Part shown: positions 2,370 through 50,654 of the stretch, one piece after another
How the letters are laid out: each line of letters opens with the position of its first letter
Position numbering within the stretch: position 1 is the first letter of the stretch
NCBI GenBank assembly: GCA_007376185.1
Contig: VMFS01000004.1
Coordinates: 165-64,164, forward strand
Direction: 5' to 3'
Source of the DNA: Parcubacteria group bacterium Gr01-1014_30
GTDB taxonomy: Bacteria; Patescibacteriota; Minisyncoccia; Minisyncoccales; 2-12-FULL-40-12
Length of the DNA stretch: 64,000 nt
The notes under the pieces: model-generated
What the model was told of the DNA's origin: nothing
The model's database searches: none
What the model saw: only the letters and a program-made list of their open reading frames with translations
Made by a program: the position numbers and the translations under genes

Positions 2370-2424
2370 GTTTGCTATTATGATATTGTAATTCGTAATA
2401 TGGTAGTAAATTGCCAAAAAACTT

Positions 2425-3921
2425 ATGAATGTATTTATACTGTTGTTCACAGGCGTTTTGGCGTTGTTTGCGGGTTCAATTCTGGGTTACTTTGCAAGGC
2501 AGTCAATAGCCAAAAAACAAGTAGGTACTGTAGAAGAGCGGCTTCACAAAAAAATCTCGCAAGCCCAAAAAGAGGCTGAGACAATTTTAGAAGGAGCCCA
2601 GCAACAAGCTGGTCAAAGGCGCAAAGAACTTTTGGAAACGGAGAAAGTGCTCTTTAAAAGAGAGCGCATTTTAGATGATAAACTCTCGCAGTTTGAACTA
2701 AAAGAAAAGGAGTTTCAAAGACGCGTTGACCAGTTAAAGAAAATAAAGCAAGACCTGGAGGCTTCGCGCAAGGAAACCCAGCAAAAGCTGGAAAAAATCG
2801 GCAAATTATCTAAGGAAGAAGCGAGAAAAGAGATATCGGCTTTAGCTGAAAAAGATTACCAAAAGGATTTAACCGACCGTTTGAAAAAACTTGAGGCAGA
2901 GGGCTGGCAGAGATTTGAGAAAAAAGCCAGAGAGTTGACTGCCCTGGCAATACAAAAGGTTGCCGTTTCTCAGGCGCAGGAACTGACCACAACGACCGTG
3001 TCCTTGCCTTCAGAAGACATCAAAGGAAGAATCATCGGTAAAGAAGGCAGAAACATCAGGACTTTGGAGCGTTTGACCGGCGTGGAATTCGTGGTTGACG
3101 AAAGTCCGGAAGCGGTTCTGATTTCGGGCTTTGACCCGATAAGGAGGCAAATTGCGAAAATAGCTCTGCAAAAGCTCATTGCCGACGGCAGGATTCAGCC
3201 CTCGCGAATTGAAGAGCAGGTGGAGCAGGCGAAAGCCGAAATCAGCACTCAAATAAAGGAAGCCGGAGAAACAGCGGTTTATGAAGCCGGCCTCTTGAAC
3301 ATTGACCCAAAGCTTGTTCAATTGCTGGGGCGTTTGCGTTTCAGAACTAGCTACAGTCAGAATGTTTTGGCGCACTCCCTGGAAGTGGCTTTTTTGGCTG
3401 AGGCCTTGGCTCAAGAGCTGGGAGCTGACGCAAAAGTCGCCAAAAAGGCGGGTTTGCTGCACGACATAGGAAAATCAATAGACCGGCAGGTTGAGGGTTC
3501 GCACATTGACATCGGAATCAAAATTCTGGAAAAGTTTGGTGTGGAAAAAGAAGTTATCTCAGCCATGAAATCGCACCACGAAGATTATCCCTACGAAAGT
3601 TTGGAGGCTACAATTGTGCAGGCCGCCGACGCCATCTCGGCCTCGCGCCCCGGAGCCAGAAGGGACAATTTGGAAAATTATCTTAAACGGTTGAGCGACC
3701 TGGAAAATGTTGCCACTTCTTTCTCGGGAGTGGAAAAGGCCTATGCCATACAGGCCGGGCGCGAAATAAGGGTTTTTGTTAGACCCGAGGAAATTGACGA
3801 ATGGGCCGCAAAAAAAATGGCTCGCGACATCGCCGACAAAATTCAGGAAGAATTGAGGTACCCCGGAGAAATAAAAGTCACTCTAATTAGAGAGAGCAGA
3901 GTGGTGGAGTATGCTAAGTAA
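2425..3921 (+). CDS. rny: Ribonuclease Y
   Basis: 498 aa. N-terminal TM helix, coiled-coil region, KH domain (IKGRIIGKEGRNIRTLE) and HD domain (LAHSLEVA...LLHDIGK). Confidence 0.9.
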   Translation: MNVFILLFTGVLALFAGSILGYFARQSIAKKQVGTVEERLHKKISQAQKEAETILEGAQQQAGQRRKELLETEKVLFKRERILDDKLSQFELKEKEFQRRVDQLKKIKQDLEASRKETQQKLEKIGKLSKEEARKEISALAEKDYQKDLTDRLKKLEAEGWQRFEKKARELTALAIQKVAVSQAQELTTTTVSLPSEDIKGRIIGKEGRNIRTLERLTGVEFVVDESPEAVLISGFDPIRRQIAKIALQKLIADGRIQPSRIEEQVEQAKAEISTQIKEAGETAVYEAGLLNIDPKLVQLLGRLRFRTSYSQNVLAHSLEVAFLAEALAQELGADAKVAKKAGLLHDIGKSIDRQVEGSHIDIGIKILEKFGVEKEVISAMKSHHEDYPYESLEATIVQAADAISASRPGARRDNLENYLKRLSDLENVATSFSGVEKAYAIQAGREIRVFVRPEEIDEWAAKKMARDIADKIQEELRYPGEIKVTLIRESRVVEYAK

Positions 3922-3987
3922 AAATTACCCCGACCCCCAGCTTTAAAAACCCTCGGTTTTTAATATTTTCCGACACGGGGTAATTTT
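3921..3987. ncRNA. Copy A of a tRNA-associated structured element (could also act as a bidirectional terminator)
   Basis: 12-bp closing stem AAAATTACCCCG/CGGGGTAATTTT, conserved ACCCCCAGCTT, and an inner hairpin TTAAAAACC-ctc-GGTTTTTAA. Homologous to 4092-4182 and 62031-62191. Confidence 0.55.
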
Positions 3988-3988
3988 A

Positions 3989-4013
3989 AAGAATAGCCCT
4001 TTGGGCTATTCTT
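3989..4013 (-). terminator. Hairpin directly downstream of tRNA-Gly(UCC)
   Basis: AAGAATAGCCC-ttt-GGGCTATTCTT, an 11-bp stem, 3 nt after the tRNA 3' end on the minus strand. Confidence 0.5.
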
Positions 4014-4016
4014 GCG

Positions 4017-4090
4017 TGGAGCGGGCAACGGGATTTGCGCCCGTGCTTAAACCTTGGAAGGGTTTCGTGCTGCTGCTACACCATGCCCGC
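4017..4090 (-). tRNA. tRNA-Gly(UCC), CCA encoded, non-canonical D and T loops
   Basis: Minus strand reads GCGGGCA TG GTGT AGCAGCA GCAC G AAACC CTTCCAA GGTTT AAGC ACGGG CGCAAAT CCCGT TGCCCGC T CCA. The cloverleaf folds fully. The T-loop is CGCAAAT rather than TTCRANY, and the D-loop lacks GG. Confidence 0.85.
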
Positions 4091-4091
4091 A

Positions 4092-4182
4092 TAAAATCCC
4101 CCGACCCCCGGCTTAAGAAACCTTCGGTTTCTTACGTCAGTCGCTATCGCTCTTTCCTATTTTTCCAACACGGGGGATTTTA
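4092..4182 (-). ncRNA. Copy B of the tRNA-associated structured element (5' leader of tRNA-Gly)
   Basis: Closing stem TAAAATCCCCCG/CGGGGGATTTTA and inner hairpin TAAGAAACC-ttc-GGTTTCTTA. It ends 1 nt before tRNA-Gly position +1. Confidence 0.6.
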
Positions 4183-4211
4183 CTCCTCCGCTAAAGCTGC
4201 GGAGGGCAAGT

Positions 4212-4240
4212 CGGGGTGCCGAGATTTGAACTCGGGCTAA
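4212..4240 (-). other. tRNA 3'-half-like fragment (T-arm plus acceptor strand)
   Basis: Minus strand reads TTAGC CCGAG TTCAAAT CTCGG CACCCCG A. This is a perfect T-arm with a Pro-type acceptor 3' strand, but no matching complete 5' half is present. Confidence 0.5.
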
Positions 4241-4258
4241 ACCCCGCCCATTTTGCTT

Positions 4259-4331
4259 TCGGGGCACTCGGACTCGAACCGAGAATCAGACGCTCCCAAA
4301 GCGCCTATGTTAACCATTACACTATGCCCCG
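4259..4331 (-). tRNA. tRNA-Pro(UGG)
   Basis: Minus strand reads CGGGGCA TA GTGT AATGGTTA ACAT A GGCGC TTTGGGA GCGTC TGATT CTCGG TTCGAGT CCGAG TGCCCCG A. No CCA is encoded. Confidence 0.9.
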
Positions 4332-4344
4332 ATAATGGGCGGGG

Positions 4345-4370
4345 CTATGCTGCCATTACACCACACCCGC
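4345..4370 (-). other. tRNA 5'-half-like fragment (acceptor strand plus D-arm)
   Basis: Minus strand reads GCGGGTG TG GTGT AATGGCA GCAT. It resembles the 5' half of the Gly tRNAs in this window, but no anticodon arm follows. Confidence 0.45.
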
Positions 4371-4422
4371 AGTTAATAATCCCTAAACCTAAACCCTATA
4401 TCCTAAACTCTATCATAGTTTT

Positions 4423-4500
4423 CCCCGTAATACAACTTCGACTCGCTTCGCGATTACAGGATTTTCTAAAAGAAAATCCTGTCGAAGATGATATATGGGG
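4423..4500 (+). promoter_or_regulatory. Candidate cis-regulatory RNA, copy 1 (leader of the HK-RR-pilB operon)
   Basis: The ends CCCCGTAATACAACTTC ... GAAGATGATATATGGGG are conserved with 43049-43128. The outer stem has a G-U pair only on the plus strand. The second stem covaries: CTTCGAC/GTCGAAG here versus CTTCCA/TGGAAG in copy 2. Confidence 0.5.
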
Positions 4501-4536
4501 TTTGCTTGTTTTTCAAACTGGTGTATAATACTTTTA

Positions 4537-5484
4537 ATGGTGCCGAAAAGAACGCCAGAGCAATCCAGCATTTTTGCTCAGTGCGAAAAGTACGGAATTC
4601 CTTTGGGGCAGTGTCCTTCTTTTTTGTTTTTGGTGATGGGGCTTATAATTATCGCCTCCTCTTTGATCGCCTGGGGAATAGGTACCCGTTACATTGCAGA
4701 CCCGGAAACAGTCGCTTTGGTCGTTCTGGCCTTGACCGCCACTTTACTGGTTATGACCTATATTATCACCAAGAGCTTTGAAAAGCTGGCAGAGGCCTCG
4801 CGCTTGAAGTCCGAGTTTATCAGCGTCGTTTCCCATCAGCTGAGATCCCCTCTTATCAACTTGAAATGGGCTACGGAGATATTGATGTCTGGTGAGTTGG
4901 GGCCGATTGCGGACAAGCAAACAGAGTACTTCAGAATTTTGAAGGAAAACTCAGTCAGAATGGCGGGACTTGTTTCCGACTTGCTGACCGTGTCCCGAAT
5001 TGAAACGGCCAATCTGCATTTGAAGAAGCAGAACTTGTCCTTGCCAGAATTGGTAGAAAGTTTAATCGCGGACTTTGCGCCGTTTTGCGAAGCGTCAAAC
5101 ATAGATATAGAGTTTAACAAGGAAAACCTTTTGCCCAGCGTTTTTGCTGATCCTTCCCAAGTGCGCCTGGCTGTGGAAAATCTCTTGGACAACGCCGTCC
5201 GTTACGTTAAAGCCAGCGGCAAGATAAAAATTTCCTTGGCCAGAAAAAGCAGCAACGTTCATTTTGCAATACAAGACAACGGCGTTGGAATCACGCAAGA
5301 AGACCATAAATATATTTTCCAAAAGTTTTTCAGATCTGAAAATGCTTTGAAGCACCAAACGCAGGGTTCGGGGCTCGGTCTTTACATTGCCAAATCAATC
5401 ATTGAAAGGTCGGGAGGCAAAATTGGCTTTGAAAGCCAAGAAGGCAAGGGTTCCACTTTCTGGTTCACCCTGCCGATTAAATAA
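4537..5484 (+). CDS. Sensor histidine kinase
   Basis: H-box SEFISVVSHQLRSPL and HATPase_c motifs DNAVRY, QDNGVGI, GSGLGLYIAKSIIE. Two N-terminal TM helices. The start is uncertain: the ORF-track ATG at 4495 lies inside the upstream RNA element, so the ATG at 4537 is preferred. Confidence 0.85.
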   Translation: MVPKRTPEQSSIFAQCEKYGIPLGQCPSFLFLVMGLIIIASSLIAWGIGTRYIADPETVALVVLALTATLLVMTYIITKSFEKLAEASRLKSEFISVVSHQLRSPLINLKWATEILMSGELGPIADKQTEYFRILKENSVRMAGLVSDLLTVSRIETANLHLKKQNLSLPELVESLIADFAPFCEASNIDIEFNKENLLPSVFADPSQVRLAVENLLDNAVRYVKASGKIKISLARKSSNVHFAIQDNGVGITQEDHKYIFQKFFRSENALKHQTQGSGLGLYIAKSIIERSGGKIGFESQEGKGSTFWFTLPIK

Positions 5485-5485
5485 T

Positions 5486-5854
5486 ATGAAAAAGATTTTG
5501 TTTATAGAAGACGAAGCGGTTATTCAAAAAACCATCGGCGACGTTTTGAGACAGAAAGGGTATGACATGGCGTCGTCCCTGGACGGGGAATCCGGTCTCA
5601 GAATTGCAAAAAGCATGAAGCCCGACTTAATTTTACTAGACCTTATTTTGCCGAAAATGAACGGCTTTGAAGTGCTCAAGGAATTAAAAGGGGACGAGGC
5701 GACTAGAGATATCCCTGTTATTGTTTTGACAAATCTTGAAGGAGTTGGCGACATTGACAGAGTCATTGAGCTGGGAGCTAAAACCTATTTGGTAAAAGCC
5801 GAATACTCTTTGGAAGAAGTGGTGGATAAAATAAAAAAAACTCTGGGAGAGTAA
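5486..5854 (+). CDS. Single-domain response regulator (CheY-like receiver)
   Basis: MKKILFIEDE...DLILLDLILPKMNGFEVL...PVIVLTN...KAEY. The start is placed at the ATG 1 nt after the kinase stop, because the ORF-track extension overlaps the kinase gene. Confidence 0.88.
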   Translation: MKKILFIEDEAVIQKTIGDVLRQKGYDMASSLDGESGLRIAKSMKPDLILLDLILPKMNGFEVLKELKGDEATRDIPVIVLTNLEGVGDIDRVIELGAKTYLVKAEYSLEEVVDKIKKTLGE

Positions 5855-19841: not shown

Positions 19842-19848
19842 GCAATAG

Positions 19849-19972
19849 CGAAAACCCCGCCCTCTATGCTGTTTGTTTTTTTCTAAAAAAGAATTAAAAT
19901 AGTCGTAGAGTTCAATAAGCCATCGGAGTAAAAATTACCGCTTAGAGGGCGGGGTGCTCACTACGTTCGCAT
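19849..19972 (+). promoter_or_regulatory. Conserved hairpin leader upstream of recA (shared with rpsF)
   Basis: A 22-nt block CGAAAACCCCGCCCTCTATGCT and a 31-nt block TTAGAGGGCGGGGTGCTCACTACGTTCGCAT are identical to 23510-23582 on the minus strand. The arms CCCCGCCCTCTA/TAGAGGGCGGGG pair. Confidence 0.6.
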
Positions 19973-22249
19973 ATGGCAAAGCAAAAAGACCAAGGTGAAA
20001 AAAAAGAGTTGCAAGAGGCGGTGGACGAAATCAAGCAGCGCTTCGGCGAGGGAGCGATTATGAAGTTGAAGGAAGTGAGGGCCGTTGACGTTGATGCTAT
20101 ACCGACAGGTTCCATATCTTTGGACTTGGCTTTGGGAGTGCTCGGAATTCCAAGAGGCAGGGTGGTTGAGGTTTTTGGTCCAGAGTCAGCCGGCAAGACG
20201 AGTTTAGCCCTTCATATTATCGCAGAGGCGCAAAAGCAAGGCGGAGTCGGTGCTTTCGTTGATGCTGAACACGCCTTGGATCCTGACTATGCCAAGAAAA
20301 TTGGCGTTAACGTTGACGATTTGTTAATTTCCCAGCCCGACTCCGGGGAACAAGCCCTGCAGATTGTCGAGACCTTGGTGCGATCTGCCCAGGTCGACGT
20401 GATAGTGATTGACTCCGTGGCGGCTCTAGTGCCCAAAGCCGAGATAGAAGGAGAGGCCGGAGAATTTCAAATAGGATTGCAGGCGCGGTTGATGAGCCAA
20501 GCATGCCTAGCCGAAGATACTGAATTACTCGACCCTCTTTCAGGCCAAACTTCTTTGATTAAAGAGATTGTGGAAAAAAGATTACCTTGGCATACCTTAA
20601 CTTATAATACAAAGAAAAGAAAATTTATTATGTCGAGGGTGATAGACTGGCTTCCCCAAGGCGAGAGAAACTGTTTTGAAATAAAGACAAAAGATGGTCA
20701 TGTTGTAAATCTTACTGATGATCATTTAGTCCTCACTTTGGGCGGCTGGAAAGAAGTAAAAAATTTAACTTTAGAGGATTGTTTAACTATTCCCAGGAAA
20801 GTTTCCGATTTGCCACCTAAGTATTTGGGGAAGAAATTAACTGACGATGAAATTAAAATAATTGCCTATATTATTGGTGACGGCAGCTGTACCCACTACC
20901 AGCTTACATTTGCCAACGTCGATCCAGAAATAATCGGTGACCTTAACGCATCATTGGCGAGTTTAAACTGCGAGCTTTATAAGAAAAATTATAAGGCGTA
21001 TTCGATAAGAAAGAATAAAAATTTACCGCGGGGCTCTTATCGCTCTCCTGCAAAGGAACTATTAAGACGGCAAAGAGTTTATGGGAAGAAAGGCCCGGAA
21101 AAAGATATCCCCTCAAAGATTTTTAAGCTTTCCAAAGAGCAACTTTCAGTTTTTATTTCAAGACTTTGGTCCTGCGACGGGCATGTTGACTTATCAGCAA
21201 GGGCTATTATCTATTCTTCCACTTCTCTTGAATTAATAAAGCAACTACAGTTTTTATTGCTTCACTTTGGCATTGTCAGCAGATGGTCTCAGAAGAAAGG
21301 TTCCTTTCCCCGGCCTCATCCACTTTATAAATTAATCATTCAGGGGAGACAAAATATTCAAGTTTTTGCCAATGAAATTGGTTTGGTTGGTGTAAAAGAA
21401 AGAAAATTAAAAGAACTTGTAAATGCGGTATGGAAATCAAAAGTTATGCCCTTTCAGGAAGTTATTCCTTACCAGTTGGTCCCGACAATAAAAGAAGCGG
21501 TTTATATATCTGGCCATACGGGCCAAGAAATCTCGCATCTCTTGGGATTATATAACCGAACTTCTTTCCCTGAATTTAAACCTACTCGTTTGCGAATTTC
21601 TCGAGAACATTTAGAGAAGATTTCAAATTTCATTGGTAATAAAGGATTAAAAGAAGTTGCTGAAGAGGGAGTTTACTGGAGCAACATTATTTCAATTTCT
21701 CCTATCGGGAAAAGAAAAGTTTATGATTTAACGGTTGAAGACAGACCTAATTTTGTTGCTAATGGCGTAGTAGTACATAATTGTCGCAAACTGTCCGGCA
21801 TCATTGCCAAGACAAAAACCGTGGTCATTTTCCTGAATCAAACCAGAATGAAAATAGGAATGCTTTTTGGCAATCCCGAAACGACCCCCGGGGGGCTTGC
21901 TCTGAAGTTTTACGCCTCTGTCAGAATTGATTTGCGGAGGTTAGCTCAAATCAAAAAAGGGGATGAGATAGTTGGCAACAGAGTTAGAGCAAAAATTGTC
22001 AAAAATAAAGTGGCTCCGCCTTTCAAGACCGCCGAGTTTGACATTTATTACAACGAAGGCATTTCATATTTTGCCGACATTCTGAACACGGGGCTGAAAT
22101 TGGAGCTGATAAAAAAAGCCGGCTCTTGGCTTCAATATGAAAATACGAAACTGGGACAAGGCATGGAGGGAAGCAAGGCGTTTTTGAAAGAAAATTCTAA
22201 CGTAACTGAACAAATAAAAAAGGCGATAGTCGGAAAAACTATTTCGTAG
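19973..22249 (+). CDS. recA: Recombinase RecA, interrupted by an intein
   Basis: The exteins total 332 aa: Walker A GPESAGKT, ...[10 protein letters not shown] | intein | [38 protein letters not shown]... Confidence 0.93.
20504..21781 (+). mobile_element. RecA intein (426 aa) with a LAGLIDADG homing endonuclease domain
   Basis: Starts [10 protein letters not shown], block [17 protein letters not shown] motifs [11 protein letters not shown] and [12 protein letters not shown], ends VVVHN with a +1 Cys. Confidence 0.9.
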
Positions 22250-22438: not shown

Positions 22439-22873
22439 TTATAGCGGGATGTCTTTCACGTCTATTTCTTCTTCGTCAACCACCGGAATTTCTTCTTTGG
22501 CGCTTTCTTGCGCTTCTTGCTCCCGCGAGGGAAACACTTTGCCTGCTGTTTTCGGGCCCAACTGCATGCGTTCTGCCACAATTTCGGTTCTGTTTCTTTT
22601 TGCGCCCGAGGAGTCCTGCCAGCTTCTTGTTTGCAAGCGGCCTTCAATCATTGTCAGCGACCCTTTGGTCAAGTAACGGCCGGCAATGTCGGCCAGTTTT
22701 CCGAAAGCGACAACATTGTGAAACTCGGTTTTTTGCTGCTTTTGGCCCGATTTGTCCTGATAGTGTCTGTCGGTGGCCATGCCAAAAGAAACAACCTGTT
22801 GGCCAGATGGTAAAGACCTGATTTCCGGGTCGCGAGTAAGTCGCCCGATTAAGAAGACTTTGTTGAGGTTCAC
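22439..22873 (-). CDS. ssb: Single-stranded DNA-binding protein
   Basis: GTG start. NKVFLIGRLTRDPEIR...TEFHNVVAFGKLA..., an OB fold, and an acidic C-terminal tail DEEEIDVKDIPL. Confidence 0.9.
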   Translation of the reverse strand: MNLNKVFLIGRLTRDPEIRSLPSGQQVVSFGMATDRHYQDKSGQKQQKTEFHNVVAFGKLADIAGRYLTKGSLTMIEGRLQTRSWQDSSGAKRNRTEIVAERMQLGPKTAGKVFPSREQEAQESAKEEIPVVDEEEIDVKDIPL

Positions 22874-23052
22874 CCCGTTAGAAGTCTGCCCTTATATAGC
22901 GTGTGGCTAATTTCAGACAGATTATTGTTATTTGTTATACCCCGTTTATTTCCACGCCCCGTTAGAAAGCTCGCACCGCCGTCACCACAAAGTAAGTATA
23001 ATCTTTACGTGCTTGAAAAACAACTTTCTAACGGGGCCAAGGACTTCTAACG
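22873..23052 (-). repeat. Nested CCCCGTTAGA-type hairpins in the rpsF-ssb spacer
   Basis: The inner 14-bp stem is GCCCCGTTAGAAAG (22956-22969) with CTTTCTAACGGGGC (23024-23037). The outer stem is CCCCGTTAGAAGTC (22873-22886) with GACTTCTAACG (23042-23052). Confidence 0.7.
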
Positions 23053-23104: not shown

Positions 23105-23509
23105 TCATTCTCCTAGAATTTCTTCAAGTTTTTTTTCGATTTGGCTAATTTCAACCTTTCCCTTTTCCTCTTTTTTTCGCAGAGCAAAGGTCTCCTCTCT
23201 CGGCACTTTCTTGAAAGCTGAACGTGGTTTTGCCCCCAAGAGTGTGTAGCGCAGAATCTGGTTTTCAGCTGAAAGTTTTTGTTTTAAACTTTCCAGCAAA
23301 GTCGGCTCCAAAGAAAAGTCAAAAGACCATAAGAAAGCTTGCGCCTTCTTTTGAATAGGCGAAGGCAACTGTTTTCTGATAGGCCTTGATTTTTCACCTA
23401 AAACTCCGCCTTCTTGGTGTAAAAAGGAAATTATTTTTTCCTGTAGAGAATTTAATTCTTGTTCAGATAATTCAGGCGAAGTTAGGAAAGTTAATGCGTA
23501 GTGTTTCAT
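23105..23509 (-). CDS. rpsF: 30S ribosomal protein S6
   Basis: MKHYALTFLTSPELSEQE... matches the S6 N-terminus pattern MRHYEIVF..HPD.SE. The ORF-track start at 23542 reads through the conserved leader, so the ATG at 23509 is preferred. Confidence 0.8.
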   Translation of the reverse strand: MKHYALTFLTSPELSEQELNSLQEKIISFLHQEGGVLGEKSRPIRKQLPSPIQKKAQAFLWSFDFSLEPTLLESLKQKLSAENQILRYTLLGAKPRSAFKKVPREETFALRKKEEKGKVEISQIEKKLEEILGE

Positions 23510-23582
23510 GCGAACGTAGTGAGCACCCCGCCCTCTAAACATATGAAAGTTGATACATTTAGCATAGAGGGCGGGGTTTTCG
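23510..23582 (-). promoter_or_regulatory. Conserved hairpin leader upstream of rpsF (shared with recA)
   Basis: It carries the same 22-nt and 31-nt blocks as 19849-19972, but the central loop is only 22 nt. Confidence 0.6.
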
Positions 23583-23588
23583 TTTTAC

Positions 23589-24386
23589 TCAAATTTTAAA
23601 CTCAATCACGTCGCCGTCTTCAACTAGGTAGTCCTTGCCTACGGCTCTTATAAAACCCATCTGCTTGGCTTTTAACCAAGAGCCAGTTTGAATCAACTTT
23701 TGCCAGTTGGTGACCTGGGCTTTGATGAATTTTTCCACAAAATCGGAATGAACGATCCTGCCGGCTTCTAGAACCGAGGCCCCCTTCTTTAAAGTCCAGG
23801 CTTGGACTTGCTTTCCGCGCTTGACGGTGTAAAAAGTGATTAAGTCAAGCGCATTGTAGCACTCTGAAATAAGTTTGGCAAGTTCGTCTGGCTTGGGAGT
23901 TTTCAAGTTAATCCTTACCCCGTTAGAAACTTCACGTTGCGAGCCCTTGCTATTTCTAACGGGGTTTATATTGTAGACATAAACAATGGGTTTTGAGTTC
24001 AAGTCCTTCATTTCCAACTCTGTTTTTATCGTCTCAACGTCTGCATTGGGCGTGGAGTTTGCCCTAAAACAATCCACAATTTCCAAAATCGCGTCGCACC
24101 TGCTTATTTGGTCCAAAAACTGGTTGCCCAAGCCCTTGCCTTTGTGCGCGTCTTTGACAAGGCCGGCAATATCAACGAATTCAATTACAGTCGGGACGAC
24201 CCTTTCCGGCCTCACTACTTTTGCTATAGCTTCAAGCCGCGGGTCGGGCACGGCAACAACGCCGAAGTTCGGGTGTATTGTCGTGAAAGGGTAGTCAGCT
24301 ATCTCAACCTGTTTTTTGGTCAAGGCCTGAAAAAGCGTTGACTTGCCCACGTTGGGCAGTCCGACAATTCCGACTGAAAAAGACAT
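23589..24386 (-). CDS. ychF: Ribosome-binding ATPase YchF (short form)
   Basis: G1 GLPNVGKST, YPFTT, DIAGLV, GLGNQFL, and a C-terminal TGS-like GKDYLVEDGDVIEFKI. Only 265 aa. Confidence 0.85.
   Translation of the reverse strand: MSFSVGIVGLPNVGKSTLFQALTKKQVEIADYPFTTIHPNFGVVAVPDPRLEAIAKVVRPERVVPTVIEFVDIAGLVKDAHKGKGLGNQFLDQISRCDAILEIVDCFRANSTPNADVETIKTELEMKDLNSKPIVYVYNINPVRNSKGSQREVSNGVRINLKTPKPDELAKLISECYNALDLITFYTVKRGKQVQAWTLKKGASVLEAGRIVHSDFVEKFIKAQVTNWQKLIQTGSWLKAKQMGFIRAVGKDYLVEDGDVIEFKI
23917..23965. repeat. CCCCGTTAGA-type palindromic element embedded in frame in ychF
   Basis: ACCCCGTTAGAAA-23 nt-TTTCTAACGGGGT. It is translated as NPVRNSKGSQREVSNGV. Confidence 0.75.
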
Positions 24387-43604: not shown

Positions 43605-44180
43605 CTAACTTTTCACCTCTATTTTCCTTTTTTTGTCGCGCTCAATTTTTGGAATTCTTACTATGAGAACTCCGTTTTTTATTGAGGCCTGGGCACGGCC
43701 CGGGTCGGTTTCAGATGGCAGAATTATTTCTCTTGAAAAACGTCCCCAGTAGCACTCTTGGTAAAAGTAGTTTTTCCCGCCTTCTTCAGTTTGTTCAGCC
43801 CTTTGGCCCTTAATTAAAACTCTGTCTGCTTCAATTGAAATGTCTAAGTCCTCGGGTTTGACTCCGGCAACGGTTGATTGAACGACCAGTTCTCCAGGCG
43901 TCTCGTAAAAGTCAACTGCCAACTGGCCTTCTTGTTCAAACCACTTTTCCTTGGCCGCCGTAACTCCTTTGGGAGCTAAGGCGGGTTTTTCATCTTTTTC
44001 TCCCAGCTCTTTCACTTCAAGCTCCTCCGCTTTTATCTCAAACTTCTTTGACTTCTTTCTTTTCTGAACCGGCCTTTCTCTCTCTTCCGGTTGAGTTTCT
44101 GGTGCTACTGCCGGCTCCTCTTGCCTTGTTTCTTCTTCCACGTTCATACCCTTTTTAAGTTTGTCCAAAAATGATGGCAT
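43605..44180 (-). CDS. Small heat-shock protein (Hsp20/alpha-crystallin) with a charged N-terminal extension
   Basis: The alpha-crystallin domain runs from LAVDFYETPGELVVQSTVAGVKPEDLDISIE to GVLIVRIPK. Confidence 0.8.
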   Translation of the reverse strand: MPSFLDKLKKGMNVEEETRQEEPAVAPETQPEERERPVQKRKKSKKFEIKAEELEVKELGEKDEKPALAPKGVTAAKEKWFEQEGQLAVDFYETPGELVVQSTVAGVKPEDLDISIEADRVLIKGQRAEQTEEGGKNYFYQECYWGRFSREIILPSETDPGRAQASIKNGVLIVRIPKIERDKKRKIEVKS

Positions 44181-44192
44181 ATTTATATCTTA

Positions 44193-44270
44193 CCCCGTTA
44201 GAGAGTATTTTGGCAAGCACCACAAATTTTGAACCATTGTTGTGTTAATAATGCGAGCTCTCTAACGGGG
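44193..44270. repeat. CCCCGTTAGA-type palindromic element between hsp20 and prsW
   Basis: CCCCGTTAGAGAG-52 nt-CTCTCTAACGGGG. The right arm supplies the last codons and the TAG stop of prsW. Confidence 0.75.
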
Positions 44271-50361: not shown

Positions 50362-50649
50362 GCCGCGGTAGCTCAATGGTAGAGCGCGTCCCTAAAGAAC
50401 TGCTCTTTGGGGCCTTCTATAGAAATATAGATTGAATAACTGGGTTAACTCGGGGAAACTTCTTTTAGAGAACAATCCCGAGCCAAGTCCCGAGATTTTA
50501 ATCGAGGGAAAGGTGTAGAGACTATCCCGAAAGGGAGTACTCTGATAAAAGTCAGGGGAAACGCCCAGCATCCAATATTTCCGGATGGTGATATAGTCCA
50601 AAATAAACGGAAGAGGACGGCGTTGGGTGTTCGATTCACCCCCGCGGCA
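50362..50649 (+). tRNA. Intron-containing tRNA, read as tRNA-Phe(GAA)
   Basis: Exon 1 (50362-50393) is GCCGCGG TA GCTC AATGGTA GAGC G CGTCC CT. Exon 2 (50610-50649) is GAAGA GGACG GCGTT GGGTG TTCGATT CACCC CCGCGGC A. The spliced product is a normal 72-nt cloverleaf. Confidence 0.75.
50394..50609 (+). ncRNA. Group I intron (216 nt) in the anticodon loop
   Basis: In P1, CCCT|AAAG pairs with CTTTGGGG, giving a U-G wobble at the 5' splice site. P2 is TCTATA-GAAA-TATAGA. The core string AAAGGTGTAGAGACTA followed by TCCC-GAAA-GGGA resembles the Azoarcus/IC3 catalytic core. The intron ends in G. Confidence 0.75.
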
Positions 50650-50654
50650 CATTT

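Follow-up and report, generated by a model that had tools for sequence, protein, structure and literature searches.

In bacteria, group I introns interrupt the anticodon loops of tRNA-Leu(UAA), fMet, Arg, and Ile (PMC3984707), and the disrupted tRNA genes of archaea include some with bulge-helix-bulge introns (some of which carry a box C/D RNA) as well as split and tri-split tRNAs, whose parts are joined by helices of 12 to 14 bp (PMC4090602, PMC4390854, PMC3218864). Here, we describe a tRNA locus in a 64,000-nt contig stretch (the window) of Parcubacteria group bacterium Gr01-1014_30, a member of the Candidate Phyla Radiation (CPR; Patescibacteria), in which an intact tRNA-Pro(UGG) gene, bracketed by an inverted repeat, stands between the two halves of a second tRNA gene. 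We consider it probable that a resident tRNA-Pro gene, now dead, here encloses its own replacement.

Integrative elements that target tRNA genes bring a replacement tRNA part to their attachment site. Intronless homing by free-standing endonucleases offers another point of comparison, as with SegB in the tRNA gene cluster of phage T4 (PMC2330249). Within the CPR, rRNA genes have been massively invaded by intervening sequences, often linked to homing endonucleases; more than half of these insertions are group I-like, and many encode LAGLIDADG proteins (PMC11270868). The locus described here shares with them the bacterial group and the invasion of a stable RNA, with a tRNA gene instead of an rRNA gene as the target. 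The full text of that study does not contain the word "tRNA," and our searches of the searchable literature turned up no account of CPR tRNAs that are nested, disrupted, or interrupted by introns. In its mode of action, the tRNA-carrying cassette would come closest to intronless homing or to those integrative elements by which an interrupted tRNA gene is also repaired.

Layout and identity of the two tRNA genes

Read on the minus strand from 4370 to 4211, the locus consists of a tRNA 5′ half, an arm of 12 to 13 bp, an intact tRNA-Pro(UGG), the complementary arm, and a tRNA 3′ half. The outer 5′ half (4346 to 4370) comprises the 5′ acceptor strand GCGGGTG, nucleotides 8 and 9 (TG), a complete D-arm (GTGT AATGGCA GCAT), and nucleotide 26 (A). 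It is followed by the 5′ arm of the bracketing helix, GCCCCGCCCATT (4334 to 4345), which belongs to a CCCCG...CGGGG hairpin family, and by a 2-nt spacer, AT (4332 to 4333), that is too short for a promoter. The inner gene (4259 to 4331) has a C1-G72 pair, A73, and the anticodon loop UUUGGGA, does not encode CCA, and qualifies as a tRNA by the usual tools: ARAGORN reads it as tRNA-Pro(tgg), and it scores 61.2 bits against Rfam model RF00005, whose gathering score is 29. After its discriminator, A4259, come a 6-nt spacer, AAGCAA (4253 to 4258), the 3′ arm AATGGGCGGGGT (4241 to 4252), and the outer 3′ half (4211 to 4240), which is made up of the variable loop TTAGC, the T-arm CCGAG TTCAAAT CTCGG, the acceptor strand CACCCCG, and a discriminator A.

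The minus-strand sequence from 4372 to 4205 agrees letter for letter with the initial annotation, which had been made from the sequence alone and which likened the outer pieces to a tRNA with a helix, itself carrying another tRNA, in place of the anticodon loop, a description that the comparative data below support. All 12 arm pairs that it reported are present, the terminal one being G·U, and A4346–T4240 adds a thirteenth. Its remarks that the outer acceptor strands pair at only 5 of 7 positions and that no anticodon can be read also hold, although 6 pairs and a bulged C result once the loss of a single G is allowed for: one G is missing from the acceptor G-run of the window (aactGCGGGTG) relative to that of L168, one of its closest relatives (tattGCGGGGTG). 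Where positions 30 to 40 or so of the old gene would be expected, the whole anticodon loop included, the window has the two arms and, between them, AT, the inner tRNA, and AAGCAA.

Folded to minimum free energy, the 168 nt form one cloverleaf within another (−74.7 kcal/mol; z = −4.2), and none of 200 shuffled sequences folded equally well. The outer tRNA was called neither by ARAGORN with introns of ≤200 nt and a lowered threshold nor by Rfam at E ≤ 10; these searches returned the inner gene only. ARAGORN likewise finds nothing when the cassette, or the inner tRNA, is removed from the window in silico.

The outer halves were identified by comparing about 170 Parcubacteria loci with the order RNase Y–tRNA-Pro–tRNA-Gly (L001 to L170 and L291 to L296), drawn from RNase Y loci of 80 species genomes in GTDB and 80 metagenome contigs from JGI, with a few more obtained by exact-protein look-up. 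An RNase Y gene followed by convergent tRNA-Pro(UGG) and tRNA-Gly(UCC) genes is an arrangement widely conserved across Parcubacteria. Among genomes in which the locus is retained, those closest to the window are L168, with an RNase Y identity of 79%, and L084 and L085, with 77%; in P0002 (83%), P0122 (93% to L157), and P0015, the tRNA locus is lacking or lies beyond the contig end. L168, L084, and L085 all have an uninterrupted tRNA-Pro(UGG), CGGGGTGTGGTGTAATGG(C/T)AGCATAAGCGCTTTGGGAGCGTTTAGCCCGAGTTCGAATCTCGGCACCCCGA, and it is this gene that the flanks of the window's cassette match: the outer 5′ half agrees at 24 of 25 positions with L084/L085 and at 23 of 25 with L168, and the outer 3′ half agrees at 30 of 31 positions with all three; blastn gives 23/23 for the 5′ half and 32/33 for the 3′ half. 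Because both flanks match one orthologous gene, they are the two halves of one gene, the resident tRNA-Pro(UGG). The identity of the outer tRNA as the resident orthologue lay beyond what the initial annotation could see.

Of the explanations that the annotation had entertained, disruption of a now decayed tRNA by a tRNA-Pro cassette with hairpin bounds is supported by the comparison with related genomes that it had called for, in that an uninterrupted outer tRNA exists in L084, L085, and L168; remnants of two different tRNAs are refuted, since both halves match a single tRNA-Pro gene of the closest relatives; and the third, a processing stem, may be what the arms now provide. The same alignments leave virtually no probability to the view that the flanks are a chance resemblance, two unrelated tRNAs, or an artefact of assembly. 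This view could draw on the poor acceptor pairing in the original register and on the silence of the tRNA detectors, but besides the shared match to one orthologous gene it faces the occurrence of the same architecture in other lineages and an independent ENA assembly (L081) in which the whole locus is identical, so that the nested locus is no assembly chimera.

The inner tRNA is of a different sequence type, with the D-loop AATGGTTAACAT and the variable loop TGATT. It comes closest to the genes that are resident and un-nested in L122 (67/73) and L039 (64/73) and to the inner gene of another nested locus, L117 (62/73); the window's inner type is the resident un-nested gene in L122, L112, and L039. 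A MAFFT alignment of the window with its un-nested relatives was uninformative, with the relatives' tRNA-Pro aligned to the inner gene. A reading of TGGG in the window's 3′ arm as the old anticodon was rejected because the related arm of L125, TTGGCGGGG, has a distinct remnant of the loop, TGAAGAA, after it.

Nested and relic tRNA-Pro genes in other Parcubacteria

Further cases were sought by two scans, one for T-arm, acceptor, and D-arm pieces enclosing a called tRNA and the other by blastn for tRNA-Pro halves outside called tRNAs; both recovered additional loci, nearly all with tRNA-Pro around tRNA-Pro. Besides the window, the roughly 170 loci include three nested cases (L097, the L157 group, and L117), four partial relics or remnants (L125, L133, L048, and L041), and one differently built locus (L062).

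In L097, whose outer acceptor pairs at 7 of 7 positions, the host sequence AGTCC TT is followed by CTTG, the arm CCCCGTTAGAAATT, GC, the inner gene, AAAATT, and the arm AATTTCTAATGGGG, after which the host resumes with TGGGA GGATT. The L157 group comprises three loci of one species (L157, L158, and L159; 98% DNA identity), again with an outer acceptor of 7/7 and with arms CCCCGTTAAAT and ATTTAACGGGG, and L117 has an inner gene of the window's inner type between arms CCCTGCACTAAATTTT and AAAATTTTAGTGAGGGG, its outer halves being partly decayed. Among the partial cases, the inner gene of L125 is cut by the contig end, leaving visible only the 3′ arm and a decayed 3′ relic; L133 retains a 5′ relic and 5′ arm, the 3′ arm having been lost; L048 is bracketed by an arm helix of 12 to 13 bp with G·U pairs and followed by a decayed 3′ relic; and L041 has 3′ relics and an "empty" hairpin without a tRNA (CCCTCCCAAGTTTTC-TGAG-GAAAATTTAGGAGGG), which precedes TGAAGAA and a tRNA-Pro 3′ relic. 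In L062, a 5′ relic is followed by an open reading frame (ORF) of the GIY-YIG family (5250 to 5507, plus strand; Pfam E = 4.6e-17) and then by an intact tRNA-Pro. Across lineages, relics are thus found at every stage of decay, and it is on this ground, along with the lack of any loop left to decode in the window, that we regard the outer gene as a relic.

Removal of the L097 cassette and of a second, 36-nt hairpin in silico yields an exact tRNA-Pro(tgg) without target duplication, which fixes the insertion point between U33 and U34. In L157, L117, and L133, as in L097, the cassette is placed after U33 of the anticodon loop, and the arms begin with CCCYG and finish with CRGGG. The 5′ junction of L097, TT|CTT(C/T..)G CCCYG, is also that of L157, L117, and L133 (L048 reads TT TG CCTG); the 3′ junction is TGAAGAA in L125 and L041 and TGAAGGA in L157, despite differing outer types. 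Extra small hairpins occur within the relics of L097 (at 25/26), L157 (in the variable region), L117, and L125 (in the T-arm). Among the 259 tRNAs in the fetched loci, every G+C-rich flank-to-flank helix of at least 13 bp sits at a nested or relic-flanked tRNA-Pro; the other three 13-bp flank helices in this set are A+T-rich and chance-like in appearance. The recurrence of nesting after U33 in several lineages, within a conserved CCCYG...CRGGG bracket, is a new form of tRNA gene disruption and replacement.

In the well-preserved cases, the outer gene resembles a resident tRNA-Pro, including that of the nearest available relative, and the inner gene resembles one that is resident elsewhere: the outer gene of L097 matches those of L088 (23/24) and L034 (39/39), and its inner gene is identical to the resident gene of L006 (71/71). 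The nearest relatives are un-nested (L088 for L097; L006, with 89% RNase Y identity, for L117; L293 and L296, with 82%, for L157; and L168 and L084 for the window), from which it follows that nesting is derived, sporadic, and apparently short-lived. The occurrence of such nesting, or of its remnants, in several lineages points to a mode of tRNA gene replacement not described before.

In this sample, tRNA-Pro is far more often nested or flanked by relics than tRNA-Gly, in 8 of ~105 versus 0 of ~110 genes (Fisher p = 0.003; the counts are approximate and leave out one tRNA-Gly relic in L041). This last relic, on the minus strand at ~5290 to 5083 and ~95 nt upstream of a complete tRNA-Gly, is a tRNA-Gly(UCC) 5′ half that ends in the anticodon loop (…CTCCCTTCT); relics ending in the anticodon loop are, therefore, not strictly confined to tRNA-Pro. 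Among pairs of loci whose RNase Y is at least 90% identical, identity is <85% for tRNA-Pro in 8 of 57 and for tRNA-Gly in 10 of 56, a pattern that indicates frequent replacement of single tRNA genes at the locus, apparently uncoupled from the neighboring RNase Y. Individual pairs with uncoupled alleles are L043/L119 (RNase Y 97%, tRNA-Pro 66%), L140/L296 (94% versus 68%), and L118/L134 (RNase Y 99%, tRNA-Gly 74%).

The cassettes invite comparison with group I introns, which they resemble in that they lie in the anticodon loop of a bacterial tRNA and would be transcribed from the host gene's promoter; such introns can spread by homing into intron-less alleles. A 5′ flank that ends in U and an insert that ends in G, as in group I introns, are read in L097, L157, and L117 (TT|CTTG...GGGG|T), an agreement to be expected by chance in ~1 of 16 cases; in the window, the junctions have been trimmed. 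Unlike group I introns, the cassette compensates for the interruption by carrying a copy of the interrupted gene and gives no sign of splicing. The RF00028 core has no hit at 3800 to 4800 of the window (E ≤ 10) nor in L097, L117, L157, L125, L133, or L048 (E ≤ 1), and Rfam as a whole returned only ordinary tRNAs from the window's locus (E ≤ 10) and from these six loci (E ≤ 1), a sub-threshold YrlA match in L133 (29 bits versus a gathering score of 69) being ignored.

The window does contain a group I intron elsewhere, in the anticodon loop of tRNA-Phe(GAA) (50362 to 50650, plus strand; RF00028, 65 bits, 50384 to 50609). By manual reading its boundary is U33|G34, the same inter-nucleotide position as that of the tRNA-Pro cassettes. 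Default ARAGORN and the Rfam tRNA model miss this gene; ARAGORN with introns calls a tRNA-Phe with a 216-nt intron and the anticodon aaa, and manual splicing gives GAA. For annotation, the upshot is that tRNA finders give the inner tRNA-Pro alone and miss both the relics and the window's intron-bearing tRNA-Phe.

Could the outer gene still be made, as an intron-containing tRNA-Pro from which the cassette is removed by protein-dependent splicing and whose exons are rejoined? Candidates for the machinery would be RtcB together with an endonuclease of the bulge-helix-bulge type, or an RNA ligase together with RNase P and RNase Z; cuts by RNase P and RNase Z leave a 3′-OH and a 5′-phosphate, ends that a classical RNA ligase can join. 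In L097, excision of the cassette and of the 36-nt hairpin does give a perfect tRNA-Pro(UGG), acceptor 7/7, with a 5′ exon that ends in U and an insertion that ends in G at 33/34, where the manually read boundary of the window's tRNA-Phe intron also lies; but L097 is restored only when the second insertion is removed as well, L157 only after three edits, and in the window no excision product could decode, because the anticodon loop is gone. The 3′ junction in L157, L125, and L041 reads TGAAGRA instead of TGGGA, L117, L125, L133, L048, and L041 have outer halves that have decayed or are absent, and an insert of 95 to 130 nt that is mostly tRNA has no room for the catalytic core of a ribozyme, none of which, group I or other, was detected by Rfam in the nested regions. 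We know of no bacterial tRNA-splicing endonuclease, and a literature search found none described for CPR bacteria. Taken together, these points make splicing of the outer gene very improbable.

The likeness to the disrupted tRNAs of archaea lies in halves joined by a G+C-rich helix of similar length, in a small functional RNA nested inside, and in the extra small hairpin insertions that some relics have at other positions. A bulge-helix-bulge reading was rejected, however: the flank helices run without interruption for 13 bp (window) and 22 bp (L097) and lack the two 3-nt bulges, separated by a 4-bp helix, of that motif. In contrast to archaeal split tRNAs, the host here is a bacterium, and the RNA nested inside is a whole tRNA whose specificity is that of the outer gene; nor is the locus an expressed split gene, because the outer gene decays in most lineages.

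Entry, expression, and role of the cassette

In the sequence of events that we favor, the original tRNA-Pro(UGG) would have been opened in its anticodon arm by a promoterless cassette of ~105 nt, consisting of a tRNA-Pro(UGG) of a different type bracketed by a G+C-clamped inverted repeat of 11 to 13 bp. Entry would have been between U33 and U34, as seen intact in L097, with the anticodon stem-loop of the host trimmed later; the inner gene would now be the working tRNA-Pro(UGG), and the outer gene would be non-functional. An insertion of this kind would be tolerable without splicing because a functional copy of the interrupted gene is carried along.

The nested cases of the window, L097, and L157 have only 2 to 4 nt between arm and inner tRNA and no internal promoter, so that the inner tRNA is most probably transcribed from the promoter of the old gene. 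L097 retains an intact host promoter (TTGACC-17-TAGAAT) immediately before the outer gene. The window has a promoter-like site, TTGAAA-17-TATCAT (4488 to 4516, minus strand), ~110 nt upstream of the outer 5′ half; its −35 region has homologues in L084 and L168, in the promoters that immediately precede the un-nested tRNA-Pro, and its −10 hexamer comes from a 78-nt palindromic insert. This site is the presumed start of a single RNA that would contain the relic 5′ half, the cassette, the relic 3′ half, and tRNA-Gly. Within this RNA the arms would pair and hold the inner tRNA at the tip of a helix, from which it would be freed by RNase P and RNase Z and completed by the CCA-adding enzyme, steps in keeping with the general activities of those enzymes; the paired halves of the relic would be left as a by-product.

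The arms themselves may do more than this. They covary (97.7% of cells are paired, and in 8 of 11 pairs both sides have changed), the flank duplex is more stable in the sense-strand RNA than in the antisense strand in 5 of 5 loci, and in L157, L125, and L041 an AA insertion has turned the old loop into TGAAGRA and extended the helix against TTCTT, all of which is compatible with an RNA processing stem. The initial annotation had taken the terminal G·U pair of the window as support for a minus-strand RNA; the argument extends to the strand asymmetry of all five loci but stays suggestive only. In a stronger version, the long helix and a tRNA-shaped outer body would be retained for a function as scaffold: they would aid the recognition, stability, or excision of the inner tRNA, for instance with the stem as an entry site for RNase III, and would be a natural counterpart of the engineered tRNA scaffold. 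The near-intact outer stems of the window, L097, and L157, the placement of extra insertions at structurally tolerated positions, and the 22-bp flank helix of L097, which is long enough for RNase III, would suit such a role, as would the covariation, strand asymmetry, and helix extension of the arms. Yet most tRNA-Pro genes at the locus, those of the closest relatives included, function without any scaffold, five lineages have decayed or lost their outer parts around an intact inner gene, and the outer acceptor of the window bears a deletion; inverted-repeat DNA elements would be expected to yield equal covariation, and deletion of the arms in silico leaves the predicted pairing of the inner acceptor stem unreduced (0.975 with and 0.975 without arms), so that a part for them as folding insulator is unsupported. 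We therefore regard a scaffold as improbable, if less so than splicing.

For the entry of the replacement gene into the resident one, the most likely route would be homing-like recombination in which flanking conserved tRNA-Pro sequence served as homology arms; alternatively, one of the CCCCG...CGGGG palindromic repeats of this genome would have transposed. The 3′ junction TGAAG common to L125, L041, and L157 and the fast, phylogeny-independent turnover of alleles fit homing without proving it, as do endonuclease-like ORFs at the locus in relatives: these are the GIY-YIG ORF of L062, between a tRNA-Pro relic and an intact tRNA-Pro; a Cys-rich ORF between the Pro and Gly genes of L084 (2985 to 3335, minus strand), with a weak HNH match (phrog_1985, E = 0.0045) and no Pfam or NCBIfam hit; and, beside tRNA-Gly in L167 (~2400 to 2640, minus strand), a GIY-YIG-like ORF with an internal stop, identified by eye. 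Transposition is opposed by arm-sharing cassettes with different inner types, by the lack of target duplication, and by the failure to identify a transposase.

As in homing by T4 SegB, tRNA gene regions may here be preferentially replaced between related genomes; unlike in SegB homing, there is no endonuclease in or beside the window's cassette, and homing normally replaces an allele rather than nesting a copy within it. With tRNA-targeting integrative elements the cassette shares the tRNA gene target (often the anticodon-loop region), the repair of damage by incoming sequence, and the fragments left as scars, but it measures ~100 nt and not kilobases, holds a whole tRNA gene within inverted repeats, and retains both of the old halves; an integrase gene and flanking direct repeats were not found at the locus, the repeats that flank the insert being inverted.

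Several observations weigh against the reading of the locus as a dead gene around its replacement, or against parts of it. In the window, L097, and L157, hardly any change is seen in the outer acceptor, D-arm, and T-arm, and the extra insertions of L097 (25/26) and L157 (variable region) fall at sites that the fold tolerates: selection for a tRNA-like shape would give the same picture. Given the arm covariation and the helix extension in L157, L125, and L041, part of the structure is probably under some selection; the equal pairing values with and without arms, already given, lend no support to a role of the arms as folding insulator. Cassettes that share an arm family hold different inner tRNA types, a poor fit to a simple single mobile element. 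Finally, the window's locus has no endonuclease, integrase, or transposase gene (its small ORFs have no Pfam hit), and for this reason the route of entry given above is a proposal.

A bolder form of the same history would make the cassette a self-propagating, promoterless "non-splicing intron" that homes into the anticodon loop (U33/U34) of resident tRNA-Pro(UGG) genes across Parcubacteria, with the conserved tRNA sequence at either side as homology arms, usurps the host promoter, and survives by delivering a working copy of the essential gene that it destroys. The host would come to depend on the invader, and repeated rounds would explain both the varied pairings of outer and inner types and the rapid turnover of alleles. 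We put this forward tentatively, as somewhat more doubtful than probable, and the same reserve attaches to the notion that recurrent nesting may represent a new kind of self-compensating mobile cassette. If nesting is an active process, mobile DNA would sit in an essential gene by replacing its function instead of splicing out; CPR bacteria would gain a mechanism for the fast horizontal turnover of individual tRNA genes, and the uncoupling of tRNA alleles at one locus from host phylogeny would be explained.

Palindrome families and the surroundings of the locus

Judging by shared arm sequences, the arms belong to genome-specific families of G+C-clamped palindromes. The motif CCCCGCCC occurs 9 times in the window versus 2.0 expected, and the 10-mer CCCCGTTAGA 7 times versus 0.13 expected, with all but one of its copies in inverted pairs that enclose loops of 23 to 54 nt. 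Hairpins of the form CCCCGTTAGA(A/G)... lie at 22957 to 23036, 23918 to 23964, and 44193 to 44270 of the window (with a single copy at 22873), at 3951 to 4084 of L006, and at 2416 to 2494 of L097; the loops of this family, 23 to 106 nt long, bear no sequence relation to one another. The arms CCCCGTTAGAAATT of the L097 cassette match the hairpin at 2416 to 2494, ~60 nt upstream in the same locus, as well as a hairpin in L006. One CCCCGTTAGA hairpin falls within the ychF ORF and keeps its frame; two others, upstream of ssb and of an ORF ending at 44180, have promoter-like hexamers (by eye) in or across the loop. These hairpins may be REPIN-like, uptake-sequence-like, or read-through insulators. 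An attC- or operator-like reading of the GTTAGAA...TTCTAAC arms was rejected by eye, the order of half-sites being wrong for attC and the spacing varying from 23 to 106 nt, and a scan of viral_contigs for TTCTTGCCCCG-N(8-38)-CGGGG gave only chance matches in G+C-rich phage contigs, outside any tRNA-Pro context.

Like repetitive extragenic palindromes (REP/REPIN), Correia-like elements, and miniature inverted-repeat transposable elements (MITEs), these palindromes are genome-specific, G+C-clamped inverted repeats at many intergenic sites, and several copies per genome share terminal inverted repeats, as is characteristic of MITEs and REPINs. They differ from REP/REPIN and MITEs in their variable loops of 23 to 106 nt, which have no conserved internal sequence, and in the tRNA gene that the cassettes hold; there is no clear target-site duplication (none in L097), and no transposase was identified. 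The 78-nt CCCC...GGGG palindrome that supplies the −10 hexamer (4423 to 4500, with an inner perfect 12-bp hairpin at 4456 to 4482) splits the ancestral spacer between promoter and tRNA, a site that is empty in L084 and L168; palindromes of this kind, therefore, insert at the DNA level.

The initial annotation had also noted that the arm core CCCCGCCC is common to the recA and rpsF leader hairpins, and the motif is indeed found there, at 19855/19947 and 23526/23569. The two leaders (recA, 19846 to 19972, plus strand; rpsF, 23508 to 23582, minus strand) are near-identical, each consisting of CGAAAA CCCCGCCCTCTA, a loop, TAGAGGGCGGGG TGCTCACTACGTTCGCAT, and ATG; in inverted orientation, the two share flanks of 31 nt and 22 nt at 100% identity, and their loops differ, measuring 76 and 27 nt. 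The hairpin could be a shared regulatory or processing element of recA and the rpsF-ssb operon. Within the recA gene itself (19973 to 22249, plus strand) lies a further mobile element of the window, an intein whose homing-endonuclease domain is of the LAGLIDADG type (Pfam hits to RecA, Intein_splicing, and LAGLIDADG_3).

In the window, the nested locus is placed between RNase Y (2425 to 3921, plus strand) and a histidine kinase (4495 to 5484, plus strand), among genes for NusA, ClpP, a response regulator, a T2SSE-family ATPase, and RpoB. The RNase Y matches, at 100% identity, a protein of "Parcubacteria group bacterium Gr01-1014_30." ARAGORN and Rfam call two tRNAs here, both on the minus strand: the inner tRNA-Pro(UGG) and, downstream and co-oriented, tRNA-Gly(UCC) (4017 to 4090), the conserved partner of tRNA-Pro at the locus. 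A hairpin spacer with 12-nt arms TAAAATCCCCCG and CGGGGGATTTTA (4092 to 4182) separates the relic 3′ half from tRNA-Gly and is homologous to a second one, with 12-nt arms AAAATTACCCCG, that follows tRNA-Gly (3921 to 3987). Of the 25 perfect inverted repeats of at least 11 bp in the window, 5 fall within this 0.6-kb tRNA locus.

Five of the loci (L037, L056, L048, L050, and L062) show the synteny typical of Parcubacteria but were deposited as Bathyarchaeia, Pacearchaeota, or Bdellovibrionales, probably through mis-binning or mislabeling. In the Portnoybacteria-like L292 to L295, an ORF for a "23S rRNA intervening sequence protein" (PF05635; 3073 to 3441, plus strand) lies directly downstream of RNase Y and, in L293, before the tRNA locus.

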